Shown here one piece after another: positions 19,626-39,819 of a stretch of 42,739 nt of DNA. The number at the start of each line of letters is the position of its first letter. The first letter of the stretch is position 1. The position numbers and the translations under genes were made by a program. The notes below the pieces were generated by a model that saw nothing but the letters and a program-made list of their open reading frames with translations, had not been told where the DNA came from and made no database searches. The DNA is from Gaiellaceae bacterium (GTDB taxonomy: Bacteria > Actinomycetota > Thermoleophilia > Gaiellales > Gaiellaceae): the NCBI GenBank assembly GCA_035605555.1, contig DASTHD010000056.1, positions 1 through 42,739 of the forward strand, read 5' to 3'.

Positions 19626-19640
19626 CCCTCCGCACAAAAG

Positions 19641-19712
19641 CGCGCCCGGGAGGATTCGAACCTCCGACCCGCGGATTAGAAGTCCGCTGCTCTTCCACTG
19701 AGCTACGGGCGC
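19641..19712 (-). tRNA. tRNA-Arg (anticodon TCT)
   Basis: Hand-folded: acceptor GCGCCCG/CGGGCGC, anticodon stem GCGGA/TCCGC with loop CT-TCT-AA, T-arm GGAGG-TTCGAAT-CCTCC. 72 nt, no CCA. Confidence 0.9.
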
Positions 19713-19739
19713 TCAGGGGGAAGGGTACCCCCGTTGGGG

Positions 19740-20354: not shown

Positions 20355-20419
20355 GTCGTGAACATCGGTTCAGAGCTCCGGAGCGGACCCCCCCAAAAGG
20401 GTGATTCGCCGGGGATGGC

Positions 20420-21544: not shown

Positions 21545-21559
21545 TGATGAAATGCGGCC

Positions 21560-21856
21560 GTGACGCTGCGCAAGGGACCCGTCGAACGCGAGGTCTCCCT
21601 CCCCGACGGGCGCGTGCTGATCGTCCGCGTCGGTGTCGCGGCGGACGCGTACGTCCCCCGGCGCGACCTCGCCACCGTCTCGCTCGAGCTCGTCGCCTCG
21701 GACGACCGAGTCGAGGCCACGGTGAACACGCTCCTGCGGCCCGACCAGGTGACGGAAGCCCGTAAGCTGCTCGGCGACGTGGCTGCGAAGCTCGAATCCG
21801 GAGAACTGGCTCCGACGGCGGGGGCGATCGAGCCGCTCGCCGACAGCATCTCGTGA
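21560..21856 (+). CDS. Hypothetical protein (98 aa)
   Basis: GTG start, strong third-position GC bias, and the stop overlaps the cyclophilin start (GTGA). I recognise no family. Confidence 0.55.
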
Positions 21857-22314
21857 GCACAGCGACCCTGCACACGAGCGAGGGCCTGATCGAGCTCGAG
21901 CTCTACCCGGACGACGCGCCGAAGACGGTGGAGAACTTCGTCAAGCTCGCCGGCGACGGCTTCTACGAGGGCGTCATCTTCCACCGGGTGATCCCCGACT
22001 TCATGATCCAGGGCGGGGATCCGACCGGCACCGGGATGGGCGGGCCCGGGTACCAGTTCGAGGACGAGTTCAACCAGCATCGCGTCGCCCGCGGCGCGCT
22101 CGCGATGGCGAACGCCGGCCCGAACACGAACGGCAGCCAGTTCTTCATCGTCACGGCCGAGGAGACGCCTTGGCTCGACGGCAAGCACACCGTCTTCGGC
22201 AAGGTCACCTCGGGGATGGACGTCGTCGACCGGATCTCCGGGGTCGACCGCGACGCGAACGATCGCCCGAGGACGCCCGTGACGATCGAGCGCGTCGAGC
22301 TCTCCGACGCCTGA
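21853..22314 (+). CDS. ppiB: Peptidyl-prolyl cis-trans isomerase, cyclophilin type
   Basis: 153 aa with [28 protein letters not shown] and KHTVFGKV. Confidence 0.95.
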
Positions 22315-22316
22315 CA

Positions 22317-22387
22317 AGCGGGCGGCGGGAATCGAACCCGCATAACTAGCTTGGAAGGCTAGGGCTCTACCATTGAGCTACGCCCGC
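22317..22387 (-). tRNA. tRNA-Gly (anticodon TCC)
   Basis: Hand-folded: acceptor GCGGGCG/CGCCCGC plus discriminator T, anticodon stem CTAGC/GCTAG with loop CT-TCC-AA, T-arm GCGGG-TTCGATT-CCCGC. 71 nt, no CCA. Confidence 0.9.
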
Positions 22388-22460
22388 GCGCGGCTAGCGT
22401 AGCGGGATCGACCACCGGGATCCCTACACCTGGACGCTCCATCCCGAGGCCACGATTCCG

Positions 22461-23183
22461 GTGCTCGGCCTCGCCGCCGTCTACATCCTCTGGGCGCGGA
22501 CGCACAGGCCCGAATGGTGGCGCGTCGCCTCGTTCGGGACCGGTTGCGGACTGCTCCTCGTCACCGCCGTCAGCCCGCTCGACGCGATGACGTACCACCT
22601 CCTCTCGGCGCACCTGTTGCAGAACGTCGTCCTGGCCGAGTGGGCCCCCGCGCTGCTCGTCGTCGGCATCCCGCCGGCAATCGCCACCGAGCTTGCACGT
22701 CTCCCCGGCGCCCGGACCCTCACCAGGCCGCCCGTCGCGCTCGCGATCTGGCTTGCGATGTACTTCCTCTGGCATCTGCCGGTTCTGTACGACGCCGCCC
22801 TCCGCAGCTTCGCGCTGATCCACCTCGAGCACGTGTGCTATCTCGCCGCCGGCACGCTCCTCTGGTGGCCAGTCTTCCAGGACGTGCCACACCGGGTCTC
22901 GAGCGCGGGGCGGGCGCTGTACCTCTTCGCCGCCTTCGTCCTCGCGAGCCCGATCGGGCTGCTGCTCGCGCTCGTCCCCAACCCCGCCTACGACTGGTAC
23001 GTGGAGGCCGACCGCCTCTGGGGGCTGTCGGCGGAAACCGACCAGCAGATCGCGGGGGTGACGATGTCGGTCGAGCAGGCGATCGTCTTCTTCGCGATCT
23101 TCGCGTTCTTCTTCTTCCGCTTCCTCGGCGAGGAGGAGCGCGTGGGGTCGTCGACGCCGAAAATGGGCCGATCGGCCTATTGA
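22461..23183 (+). CDS. ctaG: Cytochrome c oxidase assembly factor CtaG (Caa3_CtaG family membrane protein)
   Basis: 240 aa from the first canonical start (GTG). Polytopic, with the family-like blocks HLLQNVVLAEWAPALLV and HLEHVCYLAAGTLLWWPV. Family-like sequence continues upstream of the GTG; see the CtaG finding. Confidence 0.8.
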   Translation: MLGLAAVYILWARTHRPEWWRVASFGTGCGLLLVTAVSPLDAMTYHLLSAHLLQNVVLAEWAPALLVVGIPPAIATELARLPGARTLTRPPVALAIWLAMYFLWHLPVLYDAALRSFALIHLEHVCYLAAGTLLWWPVFQDVPHRVSSAGRALYLFAAFVLASPIGLLLALVPNPAYDWYVEADRLWGLSAETDQQIAGVTMSVEQAIVFFAIFAFFFFRFLGEEERVGSSTPKMGRSAY

Positions 23184-23222
23184 AGCTCGGAGGCGCCGCT
23201 GGCAGGGTGAGGGAGCGCGCGA

Positions 23223-23603
23223 ATGCTCAGCTTGCAGGTGGGTACGGAACCGGACGCCGTTCAGGAGACCTTGCTCGGGGAAGCGCTCGAGCATGCCCAT
23301 GTTGGTGCGATCGTCCTCGACGAAAAGGGCCGGTACCTCGCTGCCAACCGCGAGGCGTGCCGGCTGACGGGCTACACCCGCGAGGAGCTCCTGCAGCGAG
23401 GGCCGGCCGACCTGGCGGCCGACGCGAGCGTCGTTTCCTCGCGGCTCGAGGAGATGGAGGCGGGCACCCTGGTGCACGCTGTGACCGAGCTCAGGCGGCG
23501 AGACGGAACCCTGGTGCCGGTCGAGTACCGCGTCGGCCCGACGAGAAGCGGCGGCCTGCCGTACTTCGTGCTCCTCTTCTGGGAGCACGAGGAACGAGCC
23601 TGA
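23223..23603 (+). CDS. Stand-alone PAS-domain protein
   Basis: 126 aa with VGAIVLDEKGRYLAANREACRLTGYTREELL...RRRDGTLVPVEY. GGGAG lies upstream of the ATG. Confidence 0.7.
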   Translation: MLSLQVGTEPDAVQETLLGEALEHAHVGAIVLDEKGRYLAANREACRLTGYTREELLQRGPADLAADASVVSSRLEEMEAGTLVHAVTELRRRDGTLVPVEYRVGPTRSGGLPYFVLLFWEHEERA

Positions 23604-23607
23604 GAGG

Positions 23608-23682
23608 TCGGGACGGCCGGATTCGAACCGGCGACCTCCTGCTCCCAAAGCAGGCGCGCTAACCAGGCTGCGCTACGTCCCG
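23608..23682 (-). tRNA. tRNA-Pro (anticodon TGG)
   Basis: Hand-folded: acceptor CGGGACG/CGTCCCG, anticodon stem CCTGC/GCAGG with loop TT-TGG-GA, T-arm GCCGG-TTCGAAT-CCGGC. 75 nt, no CCA. Confidence 0.9.
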
Positions 23683-25704: not shown

Positions 25705-28700
25705 TCACTCGCCCACACGCGTCCCTGTCGGGAGCTCGAAGACGAAGCTCGCGCCGTGGCCGGCGCCTGGATCGACCCACAGCCGGCCCCCCATCGCCGT
25801 CGCGAGACCGCGGGCAATGAAGAGGCCGAGGCCGGTTCCGCCCGAATCCGGACCGGCTGGATCCGCACGGTAGAACTTTCGGAAGATGCGCTCCTGCTCC
25901 CCGCTGGGGACGCCGGAGCCCTCGTCCGCGACGCGAACCTGGACGGCATCGGGCGTGCGCCTCGCAGCCACCGTGACCGTCCCACCGTGCGGCGAGAACT
26001 TGACGGCGTTGTCGAGGAGGTTGGTGAGGATCTGGCGCACCTTATCGCGGTCGGCGCTTGCATCGAGCGGCTCCTCGGGCACGTCGATCACGAAGCGACG
26101 CCCGTTGACGACCTCGCGCTGGACGTTCGAGACCACGTCCGTCACCACATCTCGAAGATCCGTCGACTCGAGCTGGACCTGGAGGTCCCCCGCCTCCAGC
26201 TGCGCGACGCTGAGCAGGGCGTCGACGATGCCCGTCAGCCGTTCCGCCTCGGTCGCGATGTAGCTGAGGAAGGTCCGACGCTCATCGTCGCCGAAGGCGA
26301 CGTCTTCGCGGAGCAGCGTCTCGGCGAAGCCATAGATCGACGTCAGCGGCGCGCGGAGCTCGTGGGAGACGGTCGACACGAACCCCGACTTCAGCTGCTC
26401 CACGAGGCGGTCCGAGGACACGTTCCGGAACGCGTAGATCCGGCCGGCAACCGCGCCCGCCGGGTCGCGCATCACGGCCTCGCTCACGGACAGCCAGATC
26501 TCCTCGCTGCCGCGCTGGATCTGGATCAGCCCCCGTCCTTCCTCGGAGGTCTCGTCCGGATCGAGGCTCCGCTGAAGGACGTCCGACGGCGCGCGCCCGA
26601 GCGCCTCCGAGGCGGGCACGCCCGTGATCTCCTCGGCTGCCGGGTTCCACAGCACGACGTTCCCGTCGCGGTCGACGGCGACGATGCCGTCCGCGACGTT
26701 GCCGAGGATCGCCATGCTCCGCTCCTGCTCGAGCACGACCCGCTGGTAGAGCTGGGCGTTCGAGAGGAATGCCGAGGCGTTCCCGGCCAGTGCGGCGATC
26801 GCCTCGACCTCCTCCTCGCGCCAGGTCCGCGGCTCGCGCGCGTAGACGGCGAGCACGCCCTGCACGGTGCCCTCCGGGCCGACGAGCGGCGCGCCGAGGA
26901 AGGCCCGATGACCGCGCTCCAGCAGCGGATCCGACGCCGCCATCAGCCCTTCGACCTCGCCGAGCGCGACCAGGGCGCGAGTGTTCGCCACCTCGCCGGC
27001 AAGCTCACCGACGGCCGAGGCCCGCGTGCCGAGCGCCTCTTCGGTCCCGTCTCCGTGGGCCGCGCTCACGACGAGCTCCTCGCCCTCGAGCACGCTCACG
27101 ACGGCTGCATCGGCGCCGACGAGCTCGGGCGCCTGCTGGACGATCTCCTCGAGGATCAACTCCGGCTCGAGCTGGCTCGCGAGGTGCGTGCCGGCGCGGG
27201 CGAGCTGCTGCGCGATCGCGCGGGACTTCCGTTCGACCTCGTACAGCTCGGCCCGCTCGAGCGCACCGCGCGCGGCGCCGGCCAGGTTGTGGGCGAGCTC
27301 GATCTCGTCGTCCGAGAAGGACTGCTCCTGGGCGAAGAACACGAGGCCGAGGCCGGGCCCGGCCCGTCTCGGGGCCTCGACGGGAACGGCGAGGAGGGAG
27401 GCAAAGCCCGCCTCGTCGGCAACGGCCGTCCAGTCAGCTCCGAATCGGTCGTCGGAGGCGACGTTCGGTGCGGCCACGACGCGCCCTCGCCTCGCCGACT
27501 CCACGAGCGGCCCCGTTCCCGGCAGACCGTCGGCCAGGAAGACCTCGAGAGGCTCGGGAAGCTCGTGCCTGCCGACCAGGCGGAGCTCCTTCGGCTGCGG
27601 CATCAGCACCGCCGAGAACGAGCCGCCGAGGGCTTCGCTCGCCGCCTGGGCGACGGCGCCGAGCGTCTCGCTGAGCGAGAGCGGCTGCGCGAGCGCCGAG
27701 GCGATGCCGAAGAAGCCTCGCTGGATCCGGACCTGGCGCGCGCTCTGCTCGATGCTCGCGACGTTGCGCAGGGCGACCGAGCCGAGGCTGGCGAAGGCCT
27801 CGAGCACTTCGAGGTCCTCGGGGCTCCAGCTGCGGCTCGTGTCGCGCGTGCCGACCCCGATCACGCCGCGCACCTCGCCCCACCAGGTCATCGGGGCGAC
27901 CATCGCGGCGGCGAACTCCTCGTACACGGGATGGGGCGCGCCGAGCGCGGCGTATTCGCTCGACATGGTGCCCTGGCCGCGGCGCATCGCCTCTCCGGCG
28001 AGCGCCTCGTCCGCCTTGAACTCGAACTCGATCAGCTCGGCCGGCAGGCCGTAGACCGCGGCGCAGCGGAGCATCCCGCGGCGCGTGTCGAGCAGGTAGC
28101 AGTCGGCAGCGTCCGCGTCGAGGAGTTTCGTCACCTCGACCACGAGCCGCTGCAGCACCGTCTCGACCCGCAGCTCGCTCGTCATCGCCTGCGCGGCCTG
28201 CACCAGCGTCGCCTGGCGCGCGAGGCGCTTCCGGTTTTCCTCGAGGAGCTGCGCCGTGTGGAGCGCGAGCCCGATCTCACGCGCGACCGACTCCGCGAGT
28301 GCGGCGTCGGTCGGTGACCAGGGCTCCGCCTGCTCGCGGTGAAGCACGAGCGCGCCGATCGTCCGCTCGAAGACGAAGATCGGCACGGCGAGCACGGATC
28401 GTGTGTCGCGCTCGACGAGGAGCTCGACGCTGCCGAGCTCGGGGTCCGCGAGCTCCGAAGCCTCGGTGACATCGGTGATGGCGATCGTCCGGCGCTCGCG
28501 GATCGCCAGGTTCGGGACCGGCAGCTCCGCGGCGGCGCTTCCGATCGGCGCCACGCCCTCCGCGTCCCACTCGGCTGGAACGGAAGTCGACGCGCCACGC
28601 TCCCCGAGCCGGACGATGCACCGCTGCAGGCCGAGCGCCTTCCCCACCTCCTCCACGGCAATGCCGAGGAGAGCCTCCGTGTCGTGCTCCGACCGGACCT

Positions 28701-29436
28701 TCCGCCCGATCTCTGCGACCAGGCGCTCGCGCGCCAGTGCTTCCTCGAGTTGCGACGCCGAGTTCGTTCGCTCCATGGCCAACGCCGATTCGGCCGCCAG
28801 CGCCTGGAGCAGCGTGATCTCCTCGGCAGGGAAGGCCCGCCGCTCCTTCGTCGTCGCCGCGATCAGCACGGCGATCACGCGCTCGCCGGAGATGAGCGGC
28901 ACGAAGGCAGCGCTTCTCGCTCCCACGCGCTCCGCGACACGTCGGTTCACCCTTGGCGAGGACTCGACGTCGTAGATCGTCAGCGGCGCGGCTTCGAAGG
29001 CGACGCTCGCGACGGCGGACGGCTCGTGCTCGAGGTCGATCCGGAGCGTCGGCCACCAGTCCACGTCCGCGCCGCGGTCCCTCGCGTGGAGGCCGGTCGC
29101 CTCCTTCCGGTCCTCGGAGATGAGCATGACCGCCGCGAAGTCGGACTTCAGGTGCGCGGCCACCTCGTCGAGGAGGACCCGCGCGATCGACTCGGGGTCA
29201 TCGGCGTGGGCCAGTCCCGTTGAGAGCGACGTGATCGTGTCGAGGCTTGCCGGGCCGGGCGGCTCCCGGCCTGGCTCTTGCTCTGGTGTGACCGTCTCGG
29301 CCGACGTACGGCGCCGGTAGACGACCAGCATCACGACCGCGACGGCAAAGATGGCCGCCGCGGCGCCGAGCAGCAGGTAGCCGACGAGGGCCGCAGCGTG
29401 CGGCGGCGCGGTGATGGACACGCTGATCGACGCCAC
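25705..29436 (-). CDS. Membrane-anchored sensor histidine kinase: TM - five tandem GAF-like domains - PAS - HisKA - HATPase_c
   Basis: I propose the start at GTG 29436 (about 1243 aa), just before the single TM helix (AALVGYLLLGAAAAIFAVAVVMLVVY). Third-position GC drops upstream of it. H-box VSHELRAPLTSI, N-box LLDNAVKFSP, G1 DEGSGV and G2 GTGLGL are present. By eye there are five roughly 150-170-aa GAF-like repeats, each ending in a helical linker. Confidence 0.88.
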   Translation of the reverse strand: MASISVSITAPPHAAALVGYLLLGAAAAIFAVAVVMLVVYRRRTSAETVTPEQEPGREPPGPASLDTITSLSTGLAHADDPESIARVLLDEVAAHLKSDFAAVMLISEDRKEATGLHARDRGADVDWWPTLRIDLEHEPSAVASVAFEAAPLTIYDVESSPRVNRRVAERVGARSAAFVPLISGERVIAVLIAATTKERRAFPAEEITLLQALAAESALAMERTNSASQLEEALARERLVAEIGRKVRSEHDTEALLGIAVEEVGKALGLQRCIVRLGERGASTSVPAEWDAEGVAPIGSAAAELPVPNLAIRERRTIAITDVTEASELADPELGSVELLVERDTRSVLAVPIFVFERTIGALVLHREQAEPWSPTDAALAESVAREIGLALHTAQLLEENRKRLARQATLVQAAQAMTSELRVETVLQRLVVEVTKLLDADAADCYLLDTRRGMLRCAAVYGLPAELIEFEFKADEALAGEAMRRGQGTMSSEYAALGAPHPVYEEFAAAMVAPMTWWGEVRGVIGVGTRDTSRSWSPEDLEVLEAFASLGSVALRNVASIEQSARQVRIQRGFFGIASALAQPLSLSETLGAVAQAASEALGGSFSAVLMPQPKELRLVGRHELPEPLEVFLADGLPGTGPLVESARRGRVVAAPNVASDDRFGADWTAVADEAGFASLLAVPVEAPRRAGPGLGLVFFAQEQSFSDDEIELAHNLAGAARGALERAELYEVERKSRAIAQQLARAGTHLASQLEPELILEEIVQQAPELVGADAAVVSVLEGEELVVSAAHGDGTEEALGTRASAVGELAGEVANTRALVALGEVEGLMAASDPLLERGHRAFLGAPLVGPEGTVQGVLAVYAREPRTWREEEVEAIAALAGNASAFLSNAQLYQRVVLEQERSMAILGNVADGIVAVDRDGNVVLWNPAAEEITGVPASEALGRAPSDVLQRSLDPDETSEEGRGLIQIQRGSEEIWLSVSEAVMRDPAGAVAGRIYAFRNVSSDRLVEQLKSGFVSTVSHELRAPLTSIYGFAETLLREDVAFGDDERRTFLSYIATEAERLTGIVDALLSVAQLEAGDLQVQLESTDLRDVVTDVVSNVQREVVNGRRFVIDVPEEPLDASADRDKVRQILTNLLDNAVKFSPHGGTVTVAARRTPDAVQVRVADEGSGVPSGEQERIFRKFYRADPAGPDSGGTGLGLFIARGLATAMGGRLWVDPGAGHGASFVFELPTGTRVGE

Positions 29437-29674: not shown

Positions 29675-30631
29675 GTGGTGAAGCGCGTCCTCCTGGCGTC
29701 GCCCCGCGGCTACTGCGCCGGGGTCGAGCGCGCCGTCGACACCGTCGAGCGGCTGCTCGACCTCCACGGCCCGCCGGTCTACGTGCGGAAGCAGATCGTG
29801 CACAACGCCCATGTCGTCCGCGAGCTCGAGGGACGGGGCGCGATCTTCGTCGAGAGCGAGACCGAGGTGCCCGAAGGGGCGACGGTCGTCCTGTCGGCGC
29901 ACGGCGTCGCGCCCTCGGTCTATGAGAACGCGAAGACGCGGCGCCTAAACACGATCGACGCCACCTGCCCGTTGGTGACGAAGGTGCACGTGGAGGCGCG
30001 ACGGTACGCAGCCGAGGGGTATGAGATCGCGCTGATCGGCCACGAGGACCACGAAGAGGTGGTGGGAACGACGGGCGAGGCGCCGGACGCGATCGTGCTG
30101 ATCCAGACGGTCGAGGATGCCGAGCGCGTCGAGTTCGCCGATCCCGAGCGCGTCGCCTACATCACGCAGACGACGCTCTCGGTCGACGAGACGTCCGAGA
30201 TCATCGCGGTGCTGCGCCGGCGGTTCCCGGCGATCCGGGCGCCGAAGCGGGACGACATCTGTTACGCGACCTCCAACCGGCAGTGGGCGGTCAAGGACCT
30301 GCTGGCGCAGATCGACCTGCTGCTCGTGATCGGGTCGCGGAACTCGTCCAACTCGAACCGGCTCGTCGAGGTCGCGCGCGCCGGCGGCGTGGCGGCACAC
30401 CTGATCGACGACGAGACGGACATCGAGGAGTCGTGGCTCGACGGCGTCGAGACCGTCGGGATCACCTCGGGGGCCTCGGCGCCGGAGACGCTTGTTACGC
30501 GCGTGTGCGACTGGTTCCGCGCGCGCGGCGTCGAGTCGATCGAGCCCGTCAGGTCGATCGAGGAGGACGTGGTCTTCCGCCTCCCGGTCGAGCTTCGCCG
30601 CGAGCTCGCGCTCGCGGACGCGCAGAACTAG
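29675..30631 (+). CDS. ispH: 4-hydroxy-3-methylbut-2-enyl diphosphate reductase
   Basis: 318 aa with three cluster cysteines in context: GYCAGVERAV, ATCPLVTKVH, DICYATSNRQ. GTG start. Confidence 0.95.
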   Translation: MVKRVLLASPRGYCAGVERAVDTVERLLDLHGPPVYVRKQIVHNAHVVRELEGRGAIFVESETEVPEGATVVLSAHGVAPSVYENAKTRRLNTIDATCPLVTKVHVEARRYAAEGYEIALIGHEDHEEVVGTTGEAPDAIVLIQTVEDAERVEFADPERVAYITQTTLSVDETSEIIAVLRRRFPAIRAPKRDDICYATSNRQWAVKDLLAQIDLLLVIGSRNSSNSNRLVEVARAGGVAAHLIDDETDIEESWLDGVETVGITSGASAPETLVTRVCDWFRARGVESIEPVRSIEEDVVFRLPVELRRELALADAQN

Positions 30632-33600
30632 GCGGCCTTCTCGATCTGCGGCTCGGTCGAGCCGCCGTCCGCTTCGATCGACACCGCCAGCACCTCGTTC
30701 TTGATCCACTCTGCATGCTGCTCGAGCAGGTCGGCGTCTCCCACCGGCAGGGTGACCGCGATCCGGTCGGTCAGCTCGAGGCCGGCCTCGCGCCGCATCG
30801 AGTTCAGGCGGTGGATCAGGTCGAGCACGCGGCCCTCGAGCAGCAGTTCGTCGTCGAGGCGCGTGTCGAGCGCGACGGTGACCCCGTCCTCCGAGACGAG
30901 CTCCCAGCCTTCCTTGCCGCGGCGCTCCACCAGCACCTCGTCCGGCCCGAGCTCGTGGCCGGCGACCCGGAAGCCGCCGTTCGACTGCTCGAACTCGCCG
31001 GCTGCGAGCGCCGCGCGCACGGCTCCGAGCTCGCCGCCGAGCTTCGGCCCGAGCACGGGAAGGTTGGGCCGCACGACGAGCTCCTCCGCCTCGACCTCGC
31101 CCTGCTCGACCTCCTTCACCCGCAGCTCCTCTCGCACCTCGGTGACGTGCTCGTCCGAGAGCCGTGCGCCCTGGACGATCAGCCGGCGCAGGGGCTGGCG
31201 CAGTTTCAGCCCGGACGCCGAGCGTGCCTGGCGACCGAGCTCGACGACGCGCCGCGTCTCCGCCACCTCGCCCAGCAGCGCCTGATCCGGGTCACCGGGG
31301 TCGGGCCAGCCGGCGAGGTGCACCGACTCGGGCGCGCCCTCCACCGAACCGCGCACGAGCACGTCCCACAGATGCTCGGCCAGGAACGGCATCACGGGCG
31401 CGATCACGCGCAGCGACTGCACGAGGGCATGCCAGAGCGTGGCGAAGGCGCCCTCGTCGAACGAGTAGAAGCGCCGTCGCGAGCGCCGGATGTACCAGTT
31501 CGAGAGGTCGTCCACGAAGCGGTCGAATGCGCTGATCACGTCGACGGTCAAGAACGACTCGTAGGCAGCAGTCGCCTCGTCCACGAACTCCCCGGTTCGT
31601 GCGACGAGCCACCGGTCGAGCGGCGCCGCCGGCTCGACGGCCCGGCCCCACTCCGGCCGGAAGCCCTCGATGTTGGCGTAGGTGACGAAGAACCCGACCG
31701 AGTTCCAGAAGGTGAGCAGCTTCCGCTTGATCTCGTGCGCCGGCCCGTACCCGAAGAGCAGGTTCCGGTCGGGCGGCTGCGCGCAGAACTGCCAGCGCAT
31801 CACGTCCGCGCCCATTCGCGCGAACGCCTCCTCGGCCTCGATCATGTTCCCCCACGAGCCGTGCATCTCGTGGCCGTGCTCGTCGAGCATCTTCTCGTAG
31901 CCGAGCACCTGCGCATACGGGGCGCGTCCCGTCAGAGCGACCGACATGAAGTGCTGGGAGTAGAACCAGAGCCGGATCTGCTCGCGCATCTCCGAGACCC
32001 AGTCCGCCGGGAACCATTCCTCCCAGTAGGTGTGATCGGGAAGGTCGGCGCGAGTGAGTCCCTTCGCTGCGCCCGTCGCGAACCCCTCGGGCACGAATTC
32101 GTCGTTCTCCCACCCGAGCGTCGAGAAGGGGACGATGCCGGCGTCGAGCCAGACGTCGCCGACCTCGGGGATGCGCCGAACGTCCTCCCCGCACTCCTCA
32201 CACCGGATCGGAACCTCGTCCACCCACGGCCGGCGGAGCTCCTCGAGCTGCTCGAGGCCGCGGATTGCCCGCTCTTCCAGCTCCGCCCGAGACCCGACGA
32301 CGTTGAGGTGCCCGCAGCTGCACTCGTAGAACGGCAGCGGCAGGCCGTAGTACCGCCGGCGGGAGATGTTCCAGTCGCCCATGTTCCGCAGCCAGTCGTC
32401 CATCCGCTTGCCCATGTACTCGGGCGTCCAGGCGACCGTCGCGTTCGCGTCGAGCAGCTGCTGCCGAAGCCCGTCGACGCCGATGAACCAGTCGTCCGTG
32501 ACGCGGAAGATGAGCGGCGTGGAGCAGCGCCAGCAGTGCGGGTAGCGGTGCACGATCTCTCCCGACTCGACGAGCCGTCCGCGCTCGGCCAGGTTCTGGA
32601 CGATCTGGTCGGTGGACTCGACCGTGCTCGCGCCGTGGAGCCAGCCGAACGACTCGTAGAACCGGCCGGCGTCGTCCACGGGCACGATCACACGGAGGCC
32701 CAGGTCGCGCCCGAGCTCGAAGTCCTCGGTCCCGGCGCCGGGAGCGATGTGGACGATGCCGGTTCCCTCGTCGAGCGCCACCTCGTCCCAGGGGATGACG
32801 CGGTGCTCGGTGCCGCTCACCCCTGGGAGGTCGTCGAACGGCCCGTCGTAAGTCAGGCCGACGAGGTCCTCGCCCTTGACCGTTTGCACGGCGACCTCGT
32901 CGGGGTAGAGCTCGCGCGCGACCCAGTCGCCGTTTTCGCGGAGGACGTACTCGGCGTCGGGCTTGACGGCGGCGGCCACGTTGGCGGGGAGCGTCCACGG
33001 TGTGGTCGTCCAGACGACGAGTGACTCGCCGTGTCGCTCCTTCAGCGGCAGCCGGACGTAGACCGACGGATCTGTCTTGTCCCGGTAGACGTCGCTCATC
33101 GTCAGCTCGTGCTGGGAGATCGACGTCCCGCAACGCGGGCACCACTCGGTCGAGCGGTGGCCTTTGAAGAGCCGCTCCTCCTCGTGCATCCGCTTGAGGA
33201 AGCGCCAGATGTACTCGATGTTCGTGTCGCTGAACGTGAAGTAGTCCCGGCCCCAGTCCATCCACTGTCCGAGCCGCTTCGACCCCCGCGTCAGCTCCTC
33301 CGCCGACCAGATCACCTTCTCGCGACAGCGCCGCGCGAACTCGGCGAGGCCGTACTCCTCGATCTCCCGCTTCGAGTTCAGGCCGAGCTCCCGCTCCACC
33401 CCGACCTCGATCCAGAGGCCCTGGCAGTCGAAGCCGTTCTGATAGCGCTGGTGGAAGCCGCGGAGGGCCTTGTAGCGCTGGAAGACGTCTTTGAGCGTCC
33501 GGCCCCAGGCGGTGTGGACGCCGAGGATCTTGTTCGCCGTCACCGGCCCGTCCGTGAAGCTCCACTTCGGCCCGTCGGCGTTCTGCTCGCGAAGCTTCTC

Positions 33601-33696
33601 GAAGGTGCCCTCACGATCCCACCGGTCGAGCACTTCGAGCTCGAGCGCCGGATGATCCGGAACCGAGGGCAGCGGTTCGAAGACCTGGTCGGCCAT
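30628..33696 (-). CDS. ileS: Isoleucine--tRNA ligase (divergent signature motifs)
   Basis: I chose ATG 33696 (1022 aa): MADQVFEPLPSVPDHPALELEVLDRW... IleRS hallmarks are WTTTPWTLPAN, HCWRCSTPL and WNISRRRYYGLPLP. The 346-codon upstream extension of the track ORF overlaps trxA and the lipid kinase in antisense and is rejected. Confidence 0.92.
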   Translation of the reverse strand: MADQVFEPLPSVPDHPALELEVLDRWDREGTFEKLREQNADGPKWSFTDGPVTANKILGVHTAWGRTLKDVFQRYKALRGFHQRYQNGFDCQGLWIEVGVERELGLNSKREIEEYGLAEFARRCREKVIWSAEELTRGSKRLGQWMDWGRDYFTFSDTNIEYIWRFLKRMHEEERLFKGHRSTEWCPRCGTSISQHELTMSDVYRDKTDPSVYVRLPLKERHGESLVVWTTTPWTLPANVAAAVKPDAEYVLRENGDWVARELYPDEVAVQTVKGEDLVGLTYDGPFDDLPGVSGTEHRVIPWDEVALDEGTGIVHIAPGAGTEDFELGRDLGLRVIVPVDDAGRFYESFGWLHGASTVESTDQIVQNLAERGRLVESGEIVHRYPHCWRCSTPLIFRVTDDWFIGVDGLRQQLLDANATVAWTPEYMGKRMDDWLRNMGDWNISRRRYYGLPLPFYECSCGHLNVVGSRAELEERAIRGLEQLEELRRPWVDEVPIRCEECGEDVRRIPEVGDVWLDAGIVPFSTLGWENDEFVPEGFATGAAKGLTRADLPDHTYWEEWFPADWVSEMREQIRLWFYSQHFMSVALTGRAPYAQVLGYEKMLDEHGHEMHGSWGNMIEAEEAFARMGADVMRWQFCAQPPDRNLLFGYGPAHEIKRKLLTFWNSVGFFVTYANIEGFRPEWGRAVEPAAPLDRWLVARTGEFVDEATAAYESFLTVDVISAFDRFVDDLSNWYIRRSRRRFYSFDEGAFATLWHALVQSLRVIAPVMPFLAEHLWDVLVRGSVEGAPESVHLAGWPDPGDPDQALLGEVAETRRVVELGRQARSASGLKLRQPLRRLIVQGARLSDEHVTEVREELRVKEVEQGEVEAEELVVRPNLPVLGPKLGGELGAVRAALAAGEFEQSNGGFRVAGHELGPDEVLVERRGKEGWELVSEDGVTVALDTRLDDELLLEGRVLDLIHRLNSMRREAGLELTDRIAVTLPVGDADLLEQHAEWIKNEVLAVSIEADGGSTEPQIEKAA

Positions 33697-33758
33697 GTGT
33701 TCGATTTTACGGAGGGTCGGGAACACGCCAGCCGTGCCCGTCGTTAGCCTCTCCGCAA

Positions 33759-33770
33759 CCTTTCGAAAGG
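33759..33770. promoter_or_regulatory. Perfect 12-bp palindrome CCTTTCGAAAGG in the ileS/trxA divergent intergenic region, overlapping the trxA SD
   Basis: Seen directly in the sequence. It ends 7 nt before the trxA ATG and contains the AAGG of the likely SD. Confidence 0.3.
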
Positions 33771-33777
33771 AACCTTC

Positions 33778-34110
33778 ATGTCTCAAGCACAGACCGTCAC
33801 CGAGGAGACCTTCGACCAGGAGGTCCTCTCGTCCGACACCCCGGTCCTCGTGGACTTCTGGGCCGAGTGGTGCCAGCCGTGCAAGCTCGTCGAGCCCGCC
33901 CTCGAGCGGATCGTCGAGGAGCGGAACGGCGAGATCAGGCTCGTCAAGGTGAACATCGACGAGGAGCAGGGCCTCGCGCAGCGCTATGGCGTCGCGTCGA
34001 TTCCGTTCATGGTGCTCTTCAGGGACGGCGAGCCCGCCGCCGCCGCGATCGGCGCACAGCCGAAGTCGGCGCTCGAGCGCTCTCTCGGCCTCGAGCCCGT
34101 CGAGGCCTAG
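33778..34110 (+). CDS. trxA: Thioredoxin
   Basis: 110 aa with LVDFWAEWCQPCK (CxxC active site, here CQPC) and the cis-Pro context SIPFMVLF. Confidence 0.93.
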   Translation: MSQAQTVTEETFDQEVLSSDTPVLVDFWAEWCQPCKLVEPALERIVEERNGEIRLVKVNIDEEQGLAQRYGVASIPFMVLFRDGEPAAAAIGAQPKSALERSLGLEPVEA

Positions 34111-34179
34111 CGAAGCCTGCCGGGCTTCCTGCTGATCAACCCGCGCTCGGGTGACGACAACCCGAGCGCGGAGGACCTG

Positions 34180-34923
34180 GTGGAGGAGGCCCGCCGCCGC
34201 GGAGTCGAAACGCACGTGCTCGACTCCGAGGCGGACGACCCGGCCGAGCTCGCCCGCGCCGCCGAGGCCGACGCGCTCGGGATGGCGGGCGGGGACGGAT
34301 CCGTGGCGTCGATCGCGCAGGTTGCGATCGAGCGTCATCTCCCTTTCGTCTGCATCCCGTTCGGCACACGGAACCACTTCGCGCGGGACGTCGGCCTCGA
34401 CCGGAACGACCCGGTCGGCACGCTCGATGCGTTCGTCGACCGGCAGGAACGACGGATCGACGTCGGCCGCGCCGGCGACCGGCTCTTCCTGAACAACGTC
34501 TCCCTCGGCCTGTACGCCGACCTCGTCCATCGGCGCGAGCATCACCGGCGCCGCAGGGTCGCCAGGGCGCGGCTGCGCGCTCTGGCCGTCTTTGCACGCC
34601 ATCCACGCGGGATCGAGCTCGCGATCGACGGGCACCCGGTCGACGCCCAGATCGCATTCGTCGGGAACAACCGCTACAAGCTCGATCTCTTCTCGCTCGG
34701 GGAGCGCAAGCGGCTCGACGAGGGGAGGCTGCACCTCGCCCTCGCCCCAGGCTGGAATCCGGACGACTGGGAGGAGCGCTCGACCGAGCGCCTCACCATC
34801 GACACGCCGACCCGCCGCGTGAAGGCGGCGATCGACGGCGAGCCGGTCGAGCTCGAGACGCCGCTCGAGTTCAGGATCGAGCCGCTGGCGCTACGCGTGC
34901 TCGTACCGCGCGCGCCACGCTGA
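34180..34923 (+). CDS. Diacylglycerol/lipid kinase catalytic-domain protein (YegS/DgkB-like); true N-terminus probably upstream of 34180
   Basis: GGDGSV nucleotide motif and IPFGTRNHFARD are present. The conserved first strand LLINPRSG is encoded at 34129-34152, upstream of the first ATG/GTG/TTG. This lies in frame with, and directly after, the trxA TAG. Confidence 0.8.
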   Translation: MEEARRRGVETHVLDSEADDPAELARAAEADALGMAGGDGSVASIAQVAIERHLPFVCIPFGTRNHFARDVGLDRNDPVGTLDAFVDRQERRIDVGRAGDRLFLNNVSLGLYADLVHRREHHRRRRVARARLRALAVFARHPRGIELAIDGHPVDAQIAFVGNNRYKLDLFSLGERKRLDEGRLHLALAPGWNPDDWEERSTERLTIDTPTRRVKAAIDGEPVELETPLEFRIEPLALRVLVPRAPR

Positions 34924-35803: not shown

Positions 35804-35832
35804 CTCTGCGCCCCGTTCGGGGGATAGCAGAG
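35804..35832 (+). terminator. GC-rich hairpin CTCTGCGCCCC-GTTC-GGGGGATAGCAGAG immediately after the cNMP-binding gene stop
   Basis: Outer stem CTCTGC/GCAGAG and inner stem CCCC/GGGG are seen in the sequence. There is no U-tract, which is common in high-GC actinobacteria. Confidence 0.4.
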
Positions 35833-35868
35833 GCAGGAAACCCGCCGACCTTCTACGAAGAAGCGCTC

Positions 35869-37218
35869 TTGCCGCACGCCGCAGCACGGATACCGGTTTA
35901 TCGAGGCGAGTTCGGCCCGGTCGAAGCCGAGCGCCTGCTCTGGCGTGCCGGCTTCGGCCCGCGGCGGGGGCAGTCGCGCGCGCTCGCCCGGAAAGGGCTC
36001 GACGGCGCCGTCAAGTCACTGACCGCGCCCGGCCGCGGGCGCATGGTCGGCCCGAAGCCCCGCGACGACAAGGGCCGCCCGCTGGCCCCGCGCGATGCCT
36101 GGGGCCACGACCACCTCTGGTGGCTCGACCGGATGGTGCGCAGCAACCGGCCGCTCGTCGAGCGCATGACCCTCATCTGGCACGACTGGTTCGCGACGTC
36201 GAACGACGGCGTCGGCTCGCAGACGCTGATGCTCCGCCAGAACGCCCTCTTCCGCCGCTACTGGCTCGGCTCCTTCGAGCACCTGCTGCTGGCGGTGACC
36301 AAGGACCCGGCGATGCTGCTCTGGCTTTCCGGGACGGACAACTCGAAGTGGTCGCCGAACGAGAACTACGCGCGGGAGCTGATGGAGCTCTTCACGCTCG
36401 GCGCGGGACGCGGCTACACCGAGCGCGACGTGCGTGAGCAGGCGCGGGCATTGACCGGCTTCCGTAACGACTGGCACAGGAACGTCGGCCCGACGAACTT
36501 CCGTTTCGACCGCGAGCGACACGACGTCGGCGTGAAGCGGATCTTCGGCAAGCGGGGCAAGTTCGACTGGCGCGACTCGTGCCGGCTGTGCCTCCACCAC
36601 GGAAACCACCCGTCCTTCTTCGTCCAGAAGCTCTGGAGCTACTTCATTCCGGTCGCGCCACCACGGTCGACGCAGAAGGCGCTCGAGCATCTCTACGTCA
36701 GCAGGGACTACGCCGTCCGGCCGGTGGTCGAGGCGATCCTCAAGCACCCCCTGCTCTACAACGGCCCGCGAATGGTGAAGCCGCCGATAGTCCTCACCGC
36801 GGGCCTGCTCAGGGCGTCAAGACGCGGAATCGACAGCGAGTCGTGGACCTGGCTCTGCGCCAATGCCGGCCAGCAGCTCTTCTTCCCGCCGAACGTCGCC
36901 GGCTGGAACGACGAGCGCTGGCTCGACACCGCCTCCTACCTTGCTCGCTGGGACATCGCCGGACGCGTCACTCGGCCGGCGATCCTCGACCCGGGCAAAG
37001 TGCACGCGCCGTTCGACGCGGACAAGCTCGTCGACCGCGCTCTCCGCTTCTGGGGCAACCCGTCGATCTCGCCGAAGACGAGACGCGTCCTCCGCGCGTA
37101 CACGAAGCGGGCGATGCGCACCGCGAACCAGGAGTGGAAGCGGAAGAGCTACCCGCCGCTGATCGAGAACTCCCTCCGCCACCTGATCGCCGTCTCCCCC
37201 GACCTTCAGACCTCCTGA
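35869..37218 (+). CDS. DUF1800-family protein
   Basis: 449 aa with a TTG start. Family hallmarks LIWHDWFATSN and NENYARELMELFTLGAGRGYTERDV..ARALTGF are present. Confidence 0.85.
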   Translation: MPHAAARIPVYRGEFGPVEAERLLWRAGFGPRRGQSRALARKGLDGAVKSLTAPGRGRMVGPKPRDDKGRPLAPRDAWGHDHLWWLDRMVRSNRPLVERMTLIWHDWFATSNDGVGSQTLMLRQNALFRRYWLGSFEHLLLAVTKDPAMLLWLSGTDNSKWSPNENYARELMELFTLGAGRGYTERDVREQARALTGFRNDWHRNVGPTNFRFDRERHDVGVKRIFGKRGKFDWRDSCRLCLHHGNHPSFFVQKLWSYFIPVAPPRSTQKALEHLYVSRDYAVRPVVEAILKHPLLYNGPRMVKPPIVLTAGLLRASRRGIDSESWTWLCANAGQQLFFPPNVAGWNDERWLDTASYLARWDIAGRVTRPAILDPGKVHAPFDADKLVDRALRFWGNPSISPKTRRVLRAYTKRAMRTANQEWKRKSYPPLIENSLRHLIAVSPDLQTS

Positions 37219-37221
37219 GCC

Positions 37222-38610
37222 ATGGCCAGCTGCTGTAACGAGTTCTCGCGCTCCTCCCTCGTGCGCGGCGCCGTCGCCGAGGCGGCCTCGGGTCTACCCG
37301 CGATCGAGCCGGGGATGCCGCTGCCGGCCGGCACCGGCCTCGACCGGCGCTCGTTCGTCCTCCGATCCGCGGGCCTCGCGCTCGCCGTCTACGGCGCCGG
37401 GGCGCTGGAGCTGCCGCTCTATGAGGACGGGGTGCTCGCCGCGGCCGAGGCGGCGCCGAACCAACCAGTGCTCGTCTCGCTCTTCCTCGACGGCGGCGCC
37501 GACTCGCTCTCCCTGCTCGCGCCCGTCGGCGACCCCGACTACAAGAAGCTCCGCCCGAAGCTCGCGCTTCCCGATTCGGGCCTCGCCTTCACCGAGGATC
37601 CGCGCCTGCGCTGGCACCCGTCGGCCGCCTCGCTCAGGACGCTCCACCTCGAGGGCAAGCTGACCGTGCTGCCGACGGTCGGCTACACCGACGCCGACCA
37701 GTCGCACTTCACATCTCGGCATTACTGGGAGGTCGGCGCGACGAACGCCGGCCTGCGCACCGGCTGGCTCGGTCGGTACCTCGACAAGGCGGGCCGACCG
37801 GACAACCCGCTCCAGGGCCTGAGCCTGGACGGCGAGCTCTCGCCGACGATCGCGACGAAGAAGGCGCCGGTCGCCGCGCTGCGCGGGGCCGACCAGTACT
37901 CGTACTGGGCGCCGGGCGTGTGGGGCGATGTCGAGCGCGAGATGTTGGCGACCCTGGCGCCGCTCGGGCGCGCCAGGGGCGCGCGCGACAAGGCGCTCGC
38001 GTCGCTGGCGAACACCGCCACTCAGGCGAGCCGGCTCCGCAACCAGCTGAGCGTCTTCACCTCGAAGCCGGGCGGAAGCAACAGGTTCGGGAGCCCGGTG
38101 CCCTATCCGCAGCACCGCAGCAGCTTCCCGGATCGGCTCGCCGGCCTCGCGGCGATGCTCGCGGCCGGGCTTCCGCTCCGCTGCGTCGCGCTCCGCGCCT
38201 ACGGCATGTACGACACGCACGCGGACCAGCCCGACTCGCTGGCGCAAGGCCTCAAGCTCACGAGCGAGACGCTGCTCGCTTTCCAGCGCGACCTGGAAGC
38301 GCGCGGCCTGGCCGACCGCGTCCTTACGCTCGTGTGGTCGGAGTTCGGCCGCCGCGGCGAAGAGAACGGGTCGCTCGGCACCGATCACGGCGCCGCCGGC
38401 GTCTCGCTGCTGATGGGGACACGGGCGCGTGGCCAGATGGTCGGCGAGCTGCCGCAGCTCCACAACGCACTCGACCGAAACGGGAACCTCAAGGCGACGG
38501 TCGACTTCCGCAGCATCTACACCTCGTTGCTCGAGCAGTGGTTCGACTTCGATGCCGCCGCGGCGATCCCCAACGCGCGGGCCTACCGGCGCCTGCAGCT
38601 CGTCAAGTGA
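37222..38610 (+). CDS. DUF1501-family protein (sulfatase/alkaline-phosphatase-like fold) with a twin-arginine signal
   Basis: 462 aa, starting 3 nt after the DUF1800 stop. Tat motif DRRSFVLRSAGLALAVYGAGA is present. GGADSLS, DTHADQ and GTDHGAAG match metal-site-like blocks of the family. An alternative start is ATG 37315. Confidence 0.88.
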   Translation: MASCCNEFSRSSLVRGAVAEAASGLPAIEPGMPLPAGTGLDRRSFVLRSAGLALAVYGAGALELPLYEDGVLAAAEAAPNQPVLVSLFLDGGADSLSLLAPVGDPDYKKLRPKLALPDSGLAFTEDPRLRWHPSAASLRTLHLEGKLTVLPTVGYTDADQSHFTSRHYWEVGATNAGLRTGWLGRYLDKAGRPDNPLQGLSLDGELSPTIATKKAPVAALRGADQYSYWAPGVWGDVEREMLATLAPLGRARGARDKALASLANTATQASRLRNQLSVFTSKPGGSNRFGSPVPYPQHRSSFPDRLAGLAAMLAAGLPLRCVALRAYGMYDTHADQPDSLAQGLKLTSETLLAFQRDLEARGLADRVLTLVWSEFGRRGEENGSLGTDHGAAGVSLLMGTRARGQMVGELPQLHNALDRNGNLKATVDFRSIYTSLLEQWFDFDAAAAIPNARAYRRLQLVK

Positions 38611-38969
38611 GAGCGTTGCTCGTCCTCGCCGTCTCGGCAGCCGCGGTCGTTGTCGCCGCCTCTCCCCTCTTCGGCGCGCGAACTCCGTCCCGCGTGCAGG
38701 TGACCGCGCTCGAGTTCGAATACCGGCTTTCCCGCCTGTCCGTCAGGCAGGGGCCCGCGCTGATCGAGCTCGTCAACTACGGCGAGGACGAGCACGACCT
38801 CGTGCTCCGGCGCGTCGGCGGCACGAGGACCTATCGGCTTCGGAAGATCCTGCCGGGGCAGCGGGCGACGCTCGCTCTGAGGCTGCGTCCGGGGGTCTAC
38901 CGTCTCCACTGCGCCGTGGCCGACCACGCCGGGCGCGGCATGCGCGCGACGCTCAGGGTCCGGCGCTAG
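38607..38969 (+). CDS. Signal-anchored cupredoxin-like (type-1 copper) domain protein
   Basis: Hand-delimited inside the 37920..38969 track ORF. GTG 38607 overlaps the DUF1501 stop (GTGA). Sequence: VRALLVLAVSAAAVVVAASPLFGA...VQVTALEFEYRLS...LVNYGEDEHDLVL...PGVYRLHCAVADHAGRGMRATLRV. Candidate ligand pattern is H...C-x4-H-x4-M. Confidence 0.7.
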   Translation: MRALLVLAVSAAAVVVAASPLFGARTPSRVQVTALEFEYRLSRLSVRQGPALIELVNYGEDEHDLVLRRVGGTRTYRLRKILPGQRATLALRLRPGVYRLHCAVADHAGRGMRATLRVRR

Positions 38970-39819
38970 CTTCCGCGTAGACAGCGTCGGAGAGGCGCGG
39001 CCACGCCTCCTTCGCCCAGTCGCCGAAGCCAAGGTCGGTGAGGACGCCGAGCGCGAGGTCAGCCTCCGGGTCGACCCACAGGTACGTTCCAGAGCCGCCC
39101 CAGTGACCGAAGGTACGGGGCGAGGTGTGCGTGCCGGAGAAGTGCCCTGGCTTCTCGTCGCGGAGCTCGAGCCCGAGGCCCCAGTCGTTCGGATCGAAGC
39201 GGCCCAGGTCCGGAATCACGCCGGCGAGGCCGGGGAACTGCACCGACCTGGCCTCGGCGAGCGTTTCCGGCGCGATCAGGGTCGGCCGCTGGAGCTCCTG
39301 GCCGAGGCGCAGGAGGTCGCCGAGGCTGCCGGCGAGCCCCGAGCCGGGACGGCCCTTCCCCAGCTCCCCACGCAGGCCGAGCGGCGCCAGCACGGCCTGA
39401 CGCAGGTAGTCGGCGTACGGCATTTCCGCGCGCTCCGCCACGAGCTCGCCGAGCACGTCGAAGCCGCTGTTCGAGTACGTCCGGCGCTTTCCGGGCGGGC
39501 CGATCGGCTCCCGACCCTCGAAGGGCAGGCCCGAGGCGTGCGCCAGCAGATGGCGGACGGTCGACCCGGGAGGCCCGGCCGGCTCGTCGAGGTCGAGAAT
39601 CCCCTCCTCCGCCGCGACGAGCACCGCCAGCGCCGTCACGGGCTTCGTCACGGAGGCCCAGCCGAACTCCCGGTCGGTGGCGCCGCGGGTCGCGACAGTC
39701 TCGCCGCCGTGGAGCACGCCGGCCGCAGCATGTTCGGCCGGCCACCCGTCGATCTGACGCAGTGCTTCCACGGCGGCGGATACTAGGCGCGTGCCCAGGC
39801 GACTCATCTCCTCCGCCAT
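38953..39819 (-). CDS. Serine hydrolase, beta-lactamase/DD-peptidase (class C-like) family
   Basis: 288 aa with SxxK (WASVTKPVTA) and YxN (TYSNSG). An alternative start is ATG 39807. Confidence 0.85.
   Translation of the reverse strand: MAEEMSRLGTRLVSAAVEALRQIDGWPAEHAAAGVLHGGETVATRGATDREFGWASVTKPVTALAVLVAAEEGILDLDEPAGPPGSTVRHLLAHASGLPFEGREPIGPPGKRRTYSNSGFDVLGELVAERAEMPYADYLRQAVLAPLGLRGELGKGRPGSGLAGSLGDLLRLGQELQRPTLIAPETLAEARSVQFPGLAGVIPDLGRFDPNDWGLGLELRDEKPGHFSGTHTSPRTFGHWGGSGTYLWVDPEADLALGVLTDLGFGDWAKEAWPRLSDAVYAEASAGP

Follow-up and report, generated by a model that had tools for sequence, protein, structure and literature searches.

A conserved gene trio of Thermoleophilia encoding a DUF1800 protein, a DUF1501 protein and a predicted type-1 copper protein

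The 42,739-nucleotide contig DASTHD010000056.1 of a soil actinobacterium of the family Gaiellaceae (GenBank assembly GCA_035605555.1, positions 1 to 42,739 of the forward strand; this whole stretch is called the window here) carries three closely packed plus-strand genes, which encode a DUF1800 protein (gene 1), a DUF1501 protein (gene 2) and a small cupredoxin (gene 3). Homologues carry Gaiellaceae annotation. Here we report that the trio is conserved across Thermoleophilia, and we propose, with a probability of roughly 45%, that DUF1800 and DUF1501 make up an enzyme complex of the cell envelope, for which the type-1 copper protein serves as dedicated one-electron partner. The features of the locus are as follows.

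35869 to 37218, plus strand: gene 1, DUF1800 protein of 449 residues; TTG start at 35869, TGA stop ending at 37218; contains WHDWFATSN and NENYARELMELFTLG
37222 to 38610, plus strand: gene 2, DUF1501 protein of 462 residues; ATG start at 37222, TGA stop ending at 38610; DRRSFVL at residues 41-47
37222 to 37344, plus strand: 41-residue extension before the twin-arginine motif of gene 2, M-x-x-CC-N-E-F-S-R..L.R.A.AEA..GLPAIEPGMP.PAGTGL in the N termini of 94 homologues
37345 to 37407, plus strand: twin-arginine motif R42-R43 (DRRSFVL) and mildly hydrophobic stretch SAGLALAVYGAGAL, a putative twin-arginine translocation (Tat) signal or signal anchor
38607 to 38610, plus strand: GTGA stop/start overlap from gene 2 to gene 3, consistent with translational coupling
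38607 to 38969, plus strand: gene 3, cupredoxin of 120 residues; GTG start at 38607; contains EDEHD and LHCAVADHAGRGM
38793 to 38795, plus strand: codon of His63 in the motif N-x-G-E-D-x-H-D, the first predicted copper ligand
38910 to 38942, plus strand: Cys102-x4-His107-x4-Met112 loop, with the other three predicted ligands of the type-1 copper
35805 to 35831, plus strand: imperfect stem-loop, 3' of a gene for a cyclic nucleoside monophosphate (cNMP)-binding protein and 5' of gene 1, a weak terminator candidate

The coordinates and motifs of the three genes given in an initial annotation of this DNA are all present in the sequence. Genes 1 and 2 are separated by 3 nt (gcc), and the start codon of gene 3 overlaps the stop codon of gene 2 by 4 nt. 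Of 161 such junctions in relatives, 137 have a start codon of the cupredoxin frame that overlaps the DUF1501 stop codon by 4 nt, and a further 11 have one that overlaps it by 1 nt, which exceeds chance. As the initial annotation had pointed out, gene 3 does not appear on its own in the mechanical list of open reading frames, where it is visible only as the tail of a 349-residue open frame (37920-38969); this frame is a high-GC artefact. Gene 3 is a real gene under purifying selection, and its conservation is borne out by 627 homologues of its protein, almost all of 119-123 residues, by 3686 relatives at E <= 1e-3 among cluster representatives and by a ratio of nonsynonymous to synonymous substitution rates (dN/dS) of about 0.2 against close relatives. 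The 3' end of gene 3 overlaps the 3' end of a convergent gene of the beta-lactamase family (38953-39819, minus strand) by 17 nt (38953-38969).

Related loci, designated here by L numbers, were collected in two scans with family-specific motifs and the narrower alignments A4 and A5, and the matches all came from Thermoleophilia-like genomes. The scans yielded 80 genome loci with a cupredoxin identity of 49-88% and 80 metagenome loci with an identity of 34-60%, in each case the best 80 of about 200. In this high-GC DNA, genes were identified with our own gene caller together with direct tblastn, and the assessment of signal peptides used motifs and hydrophobicity instead of a trained predictor. 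Among the genome loci, a full DUF1501 gene lies directly upstream of the cupredoxin in 81 of the 84 copies with at least 1.5 kb of upstream DNA, and DUF1800 and DUF1501 are both present in 72 of the 75 copies with at least 3 kb. By the same criteria, the metagenome loci give 32/34 and 24/26. Overall, the cupredoxin comes immediately after DUF1800-DUF1501 in about 115 of 120 relatives for which there is sufficient flanking DNA. The exceptions are a distant second cupredoxin paralogue (one each in L042 and L065), one orphan, and loci in which the pair is deleted or fragmentary (L070, L161).

The linkage of the three genes does not depend on their surroundings. About 31 long loci have the window's neighbours, and the trio is still together in 56 long loci with none of the window's six neighbouring genes. 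There are at least two other recurrent genomic contexts besides the window type, and the trio occurs in at least three unrelated contexts. Tandem double trios are present in at least eight genome loci (L026, L034, L038, L045, L047, L051, L057, L079) and in the metagenome loci L094, L096 and L098. Because their copies are merely about 45-60% identical to each other, they suggest an old duplication that has been kept in several Thermoleophilia genomes. The three proteins have also diverged together: over 82 full trios, identity to the window proteins co-varies with r = 0.96 between genes 1 and 2 and r = 0.84-0.85 between gene 3 and either of them.

The order of the genes can change as well. In the Miltoncostaeales-type loci it is cupredoxin-DUF1800-DUF1501 in 7/7 sampled, with the genes abutting or overlapping and in differing contexts. 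These loci belong to the cultured Miltoncostaea oceani, a member of the Thermoleophilia (order Miltoncostaeales) with one chromosomal and one plasmid copy of the trio, and to five related metagenome genomes. The copper partner thus stays with the pair through changes in genomic context, gene order and copy number, and we consider it very likely that DUF1800, DUF1501 and the cupredoxin form a functional unit. Outside this group, no gene 3-family cupredoxin was found within 4-5 kb of the DUF1800-DUF1501 pairs of Thermus, two Azospirillum strains, Chondrinema and Vibrio. The enrichment of cupredoxins beside such pairs that had been anticipated is therefore strong in this DUF1800/DUF1501 clade of Thermoleophilia, but the cupredoxin is not a general partner, as five pairs from other phyla are without it. 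In this small sample, it accompanies the pair only in Thermoleophilia and is not part of the pair's core. Pairs in other phyla adjoin carbohydrate genes (glycoside hydrolase family 19 (GH19) chitinase, sugar porter, sialidase, chitin synthase).

Several individual loci depart from the common pattern. The first pair of the tandem in L149 is without a cupredoxin. In L070 (6001-6192) the pair is gone from a window-type context and a partial cupredoxin match (residues 49-112) is left. In L114 and L137, an intact cupredoxin gene adjoins short fragments of the DUF1800 N terminus and the DUF1501 C terminus. These two loci are decayed versions of the trio, as are L070 and L161. L053 (CAVXVQ010000007.1), labelled 'uncultured Alphaproteobacteria bacterium', holds a trio 56-66% identical to the Gaiellaceae one and is probably a mislabelled or mis-binned contig. 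A search of the loci for a recurrent fourth gene, or for a respiratory or copper-related neighbour, returned only neighbours belonging to synteny blocks, namely ThrRS, a CBS protein, a nitrilase-like gene and a small acidic open reading frame. The last of these encodes 54-81 residues (MS-L-x-[ED]KIK-x-MFSGGS...) on the same strand, 100-130 nt 3' of the cupredoxin, in 19 loci of one recurrent context (for example L037:6446-6610, L054:6453-6629, L067:6473-6652 and L082); it is not in the window. It often contains a His/Asp-rich run (HDHSGHDHSHE), which the L042 copy lacks.

The initial annotation had noted an apparently complete set of type-1 copper ligands in gene 3, and this reading is upheld by conservation and by alignment with the ligands of solved cupredoxins. 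His63, Cys102, His107 and Met112 are invariant in the 120 best matches to the gene 3 protein as well as in 65 diverged cluster representatives that are 36-52% identical. Against the PDB, the best full-domain match of the family profile is the N-terminal domain of Hyphomicrobium nitrite reductase 2dv6 (domain E = 5.5e-5), in which all copper-ligand positions align; further matches are to the type-1 copper domains of auracyanin, rusticyanin and ceruloplasmin. His63 falls on the histidine of QHD in the N-terminal cupredoxin domain of 2dv6, and the Cys102/His107/Met112 loop corresponds to the loops HCHVTDHIHAGM of ceruloplasmin and CSIAGHRQAGM of 2dv6. Judged from these alignments, the gene 3 protein probably binds copper in a type-1 site.

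The gene 3 protein begins with a hydrophobic N-terminal signal or anchor (residues 2-19), and a hydrophobic N terminus is found in 119 of 120 close homologues. By contrast, the cupredoxin is without a signal peptide in at least five of the seven Miltoncostaeales-type loci, and the open frame of L168 has no room for one; these signal-less cupredoxins would suit export within a complex. Of the 150 best-matching cupredoxin relatives, the long ones are multi-cupredoxin repeats (4-12 in tandem) and a single fusion, P0382 (486 residues), in which a cupredoxin of the gene 3 family follows the C terminus of a glucose/sorbosone dehydrogenase domain of the pyrroloquinoline quinone (PQQ) type. No fusion of the cupredoxin to DUF1501 or DUF1800 occurs among these 150 relatives; one candidate fusion, P0257, was rejected as a frameshifted read-through of adjacent genes.

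The assignments of genes 1 and 2 to DUF1800 and DUF1501 stand, since both proteins score above the Pfam cut-offs. Gene 2 matches DUF1501 (PF07394) with 76.9 bits against a cut-off of 27 (2e-21), the alignment covering profile positions 228-377 only, and its N-terminal half contains the invariant GGxD and S-H-F motifs common to annotated DUF1501 proteins of Thermus, Azospirillum and Miltoncostaea. Residues that are invariant from Thermoleophilia to Thermus and Azospirillum (alignment A6) include GGxD94, S161-H162-F, D331-T-H333, Q336, S373-E-F-G-R377, N382 and G-T-D388-H389-G. The pattern D94/S161-H162/D331-x-H333/D388-H389 would suit a two-metal centre with a serine nucleophile and is compatible with the metal site of alkaline phosphatases and sulfatases, which have an alpha/beta fold and combine Asp, a Ser/Thr/formylglycine nucleophile and Asp-His pairs in that site. 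Gene 2 is presumed to encode the catalytic subunit. By its Pfam clan, DUF1501 presumably belongs to the alkaline-phosphatase superfamily, a link that our searches did not confirm. A sulfatase/alkaline-phosphatase-like fold had been put forward in the initial annotation; single-sequence and profile searches of DUF1501 against PDB sequences gave nothing usable, a relaxed Pfam scan of 13 DUF1501 proteins returned no phosphatase-related family, and hhalign assigned the alignment of DUF1501 with E. coli PhoA a probability of 0.2%.

The twin-arginine motif of gene 2 is widely shared. An RRx[FLVIM][LVIM] motif lies within the first 70 residues in 86 of 94 DUF1501 homologues, and a twin arginine is also present in the DUF1501 proteins of Thermus, Azospirillum, Chondrinema and Vibrio, and thus in every lineage examined. 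With an N-terminal motif of the S/T-R-R-x-F-L-K kind ahead of a mildly hydrophobic stretch, the gene 2 protein qualifies by sequence as a putative Tat substrate, and it is unusual in that the motif is placed after the conserved 41-residue extension. This extension, which is not present in the Thermus and Azospirillum proteins of alignment A6, is strongly conserved and carries a Cys pair (CC, CHHC or CxxC variants) as well as AEAG-x-GLPAIEPGMP-x-PAGTGL; it may serve to bind a chaperone or a metal, or as a cytoplasmic tail. It also contains a second, degenerate RR-like motif (SR..LLRR), and besides the window it is found in L026, L037, L091, L098, L140 and others.

Gene 1 matches DUF1800 (PF08811) with 316.9 bits against a cut-off of 26.1 (3e-94), over profile positions 1-418 of 419, and a search with its protein gave at least 7,900 relatives. 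Its AlphaFold2 model, computed from an alignment of two clades, is mostly alpha-helical with small hairpins and is confident, with a predicted local distance difference test (pLDDT) score of 93.5 and a predicted template modelling (pTM) score of 0.92. Foldseek found no structural match for this model in the PDB (best E = 1.4, TM <= 0.14), and a search of the PDB with the gene 1 sequence returned nothing usable. A confident model without a solved match makes DUF1800 a worthwhile structural target. Its invariant polar residues include N164-E-N-Y-x-R-E-x-x-E173, R193, T196, D219, K223, K304, R315, Q335 and R360, and there is no conserved Cys in the DUF1800 alignments.

The locus had been described as an exported three-protein unit. 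The conserved unit of three genes stands, whereas export signals for all three proteins do not: gene 1 is without a signal peptide, because TTG 35869 is the first possible start after a stop, and a hydrophobic N terminus occurs in 0/228 DUF1800 homologues. No signal was found in the DUF1800 proteins of Azospirillum, Thermus and Chondrinema either. The Vibrio DUF1800 has a lipoprotein-type signal, which argues that the family acts outside the cytoplasm, and DUF1800 proteins are abundant in a membrane-vesicle proteome (PMC12981691). The signal-less DUF1800, the Vibrio signal and the vesicle proteome together favor, by analogy, joint export of DUF1800 and DUF1501 as a complex. Without a signal peptide of its own, DUF1800 would leave the cytoplasm only by means of the Tat signal of DUF1501.

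These observations can be combined into a mechanism. The three genes would form one operon encoding a cell-envelope enzyme module, in which DUF1501 is a metal-dependent enzyme with a twin-arginine signal and DUF1800 an all-alpha protein with no signal of its own. Folding and assembly of DUF1800 with DUF1501 would take place in the cytoplasm, and Tat would then translocate both together, with DUF1800 carried by the DUF1501 signal. A signal or anchor at its own N terminus would bring the Gaiellales cupredoxin to the outer face, and the signal-less cupredoxin of Miltoncostaeales would probably travel as a third subunit. The cupredoxin, binding one type-1 copper through His63, Cys102, His107 and Met112, would act as a dedicated one-electron partner and would connect a redox step of DUF1800/DUF1501 with the respiratory chain or with oxygen. 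That electron transfer for a DUF1800/DUF1501 enzyme is the cupredoxin's job seems possible to us at somewhat less than even odds.

Full-text literature searches with the family names and Pfam accessions turned up no function for DUF1501 or DUF1800, in agreement with the initial annotation, which knew of none for the pair; a search for cupredoxin together with Gaiella gave no match. A copper partner would be the first concrete, testable clue to redox or copper-dependent chemistry of the pair outside the cytoplasm: a partner with a well-understood role in one-electron transfer narrows the candidate functions of the pair to cell-surface reactions that are redox in nature or depend on copper. M. 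oceani, which is in culture, would allow the idea to be tested.

Several points weigh against this proposal. The evidence is all comparative, and nearly all the genomes are metagenome bins. Taken alone, the window cupredoxin stays under the Pfam cut-offs (Cupredoxin_1, 22.2 vs 27 bits; Copper-bind, 14.5 vs 21.2), with weak matches to four other cupredoxin families besides Cupredoxin_1; many gene 3 homologues exceed the PF13473 cut-off. The AlphaFold2 model of gene 3 is an eight-strand sandwich of low confidence (pLDDT 67.5), and its Foldseek matches to amicyanin, plastocyanin and auracyanin are weak. Because the model is poor, Foldseek is uninformative here, and sequence profiles were therefore used for the cupredoxin assignment. 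Neither DUF1800 nor DUF1501 revealed a redox cofactor site; there is no conserved Cys and no CxxCH, and in DUF1501 the invariant D / S-H / D-x-H / D-H pattern resembles a two-metal site of hydrolytic type. No flanking gene in the loci or the window suggests a respiratory link or a substrate. Moreover, the core chemistry of DUF1800/DUF1501 does not need the cupredoxin, because pairs elsewhere are without it. The earlier suggestion of an extracytoplasmic redox or copper-dependent reaction is nevertheless reasonable, and it gains weight from Planctomycetes and Verrucomicrobia, where the partners of DUF1501 have cytochrome-c motifs.

The strongest alternative is that the cupredoxin handles copper and is no redox carrier; it would deliver, buffer or sense copper for a copper-dependent DUF1501/DUF1800 enzyme or for envelope homeostasis. 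The invariant His/Cys/His/Met set would be able to hold Cu(I), the DUF1501 proteins of this clade have the conserved N-terminal Cys pair (CC or CHHC), a His/Asp-rich small open reading frame lies 3' of the trio in 19 loci, and neither large protein has an evident redox site. However, the solved proteins that the profile places nearest are type-1 domains with an electron-transfer role (auracyanin, rusticyanin and the tethered domain of nitrite reductase), one cupredoxin relative is fused to a PQQ dehydrogenase, copper-resistance or chaperone genes were not found nearby, and the His-rich stretch of the small frame is not conserved, being absent from the L042 copy. We regard copper handling as unlikely.

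Somewhat less likely still is the possibility that DUF1800 is never exported and assists DUF1501 in the cytoplasm, either in its maturation or as a Tat proofreading chaperone, with just DUF1501 and the cupredoxin acting outside. The missing signal peptide in DUF1800 of Thermoleophilia, Azospirillum, Thermus and Chondrinema would be explained, as would the long conserved region before the twin arginine of DUF1501, which is of the kind recognised by signal-binding chaperones. Set against this are the lipoprotein-type signal of the Vibrio protein and the abundance of DUF1800 in the membrane-vesicle proteome (PMC12981691). In addition, DUF1800 remains paired with DUF1501 proteins that have no N-terminal extension, and a protein of 449 residues with many invariant polar positions is more like an enzyme or a cofactor-binding subunit.

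A plain hydrolase, that is, a secreted phosphatase- or sulfatase-like scavenger accompanied by a cupredoxin-fold protein serving only as a structural or binding beta-sandwich, would agree with the two-metal-like invariant motifs of DUF1501 and with the carbohydrate genes beside the pairs of other phyla. We consider it highly unlikely, as four copper ligands strictly invariant across about 35-90% identity are unexpected in a binding module without metal, and our searches did not bear out a place for DUF1501 in the alkaline-phosphatase superfamily. The absence of any functional link, with the cupredoxin beside the pair by inherited gene order alone, draws on the relatedness of the samples (all from one class, Thermoleophilia, and mostly one order) but is close to excluded, since the linkage persists despite complete turnover of the flanking genes, permutation of gene order and tandem duplication of the whole trio, the translational overlap is conserved, and the cupredoxin is signal-less in one clade.

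The window around the trio has a G+C content of 70% and is a housekeeping stretch of chromosome, with genes for PBP2, MreB, ValRS, ClpX, trigger factor, tRNAs, IspH and IleRS. The initial annotation placed a terminator-like hairpin at 35804-35832, upstream of gene 1. A stem-loop does fold at 35805-35831, but it is not a convincing terminator: it is without a U-tract, its folding is no better than that of shuffled sequence (z = -0.69), and a terminator scan detected none at the locus. Searches of the trio locus for Rfam families, promoters and terminators likewise found none. In most close relatives a minus-strand gene for a CHASE2-guanylate cyclase (583-592 residues) is located between the cNMP-binding gene and DUF1800 (L001:3286-5037, L003, L004, L007, L009 and others). 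The window has just 65 nt at this position (35804-35868), and L006, L015, L020 and L022 are alike. Farther away, six single tRNA genes are scattered among protein-coding genes over 9 kb (14393-23682, all minus strand), and a 1243-residue sensor histidine kinase with five GAF domains and one PAS domain is encoded at 25705-29436 (minus strand). The 1368-residue open reading frame at 30628-34734 (minus strand) is an isoleucyl-tRNA synthetase plus a long spurious 5' extension; the enzyme of L001 was called at 1019 residues, starting MADRVFEPLPSVPDH, and the corresponding Met of the window (MADQVFEPLPSVPDH) lies well inside the frame.

Among known systems, the iron uptake system EfeUOB resembles the trio in that gene 3 weakly matches the N-terminal part of EfeO, a cupredoxin domain, in NCBIfam (2e-5) and has a neighbour with a predicted Tat signal, as EfeB is a Tat-exported protein in EfeUOB. 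Membership was rejected, as the match reaches 23.8 bits against a cut-off of 270 and covers only the N-terminal 107 profile positions, with no M75 domain, and neither an EfeU permease nor an EfeB (DyP peroxidase) is encoded in the window.

DUF1501 and DUF1800 are large families that occur in many phyla, with dozens of copies per planctomycete genome. The DUF1800-DUF1501 pairs of Proteobacteria, Bacteroidota and Thermus share with the trio the families, their order and close spacing, the twin arginine of DUF1501 and a mostly signal-less DUF1800. They differ in that there is no cupredoxin within 4-5 kb and no Cys-containing extension of DUF1501, and some have carbohydrate-related neighbours. In Tat hitchhiker complexes, such as the small and large subunits of [NiFe] hydrogenase and DmsAB, a signal-less partner is exported with a subunit that carries the Tat signal. 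The pair is similar in combining one subunit that has a long conserved twin-arginine signal with an adjacent partner that has none. These enzymes have no homology to DUF1800/DUF1501, and complex formation and co-export of the pair are proposed here by analogy. Amicyanin is the dedicated cupredoxin of methylamine dehydrogenase, and the N-terminal type-1 copper domain of 2dv6 is tethered to its nitrite reductase; gene 3 would likewise be a small type-1 copper protein that shares a locus with the enzyme it serves. The trio differs in that its partner enzyme is without a recognised redox cofactor and the window protein is under the Pfam cupredoxin cut-offs.

The DUF1800-DUF1501 pair has been recorded beside horizontally transferred chitin synthases (PMC5122149). 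In Planctomycetes, Verrucomicrobia and Lentisphaerae, DUF1501 is linked to PSCyt1/PSCyt2/PSD1 proteins with cytochrome-c motifs (Kamneva et al. 2012, PMC3542564), and the authors regarded this module as 'involved in electron transport', its function being unknown (PMC3542564). Membership of the trio in this module was considered and rejected: none of the three proteins has a Pfam match to the PSCyt1, PSCyt2 or PSD1 domains, DUF1800 has no conserved Cys, and the resemblance is one of working only. Both systems place a gene for a Tat-signal DUF1501 beside one for a protein with an electron-transfer module, and both are conserved with many duplications. The partner in the module has a cytochrome-c motif and is joined by PSD1/DUF1549, whereas the trio would use a type-1 copper cupredoxin together with DUF1800, in an actinobacterial host. 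It is conceivable, although rather unlikely, that DUF1800/DUF1501 constitute an unrecognised class of extracytoplasmic oxidoreductases, exported by Tat as a heterodimer in which a phosphatase-like metal subunit is joined by an all-alpha subunit with a new fold, and served by a copper carrier in Thermoleophilia and by cytochrome-c-motif carriers in Planctomycetes and Verrucomicrobia. If so, thousands of genomes would carry this system, and the Thermoleophilia trio would be its minimal form and the most tractable one.

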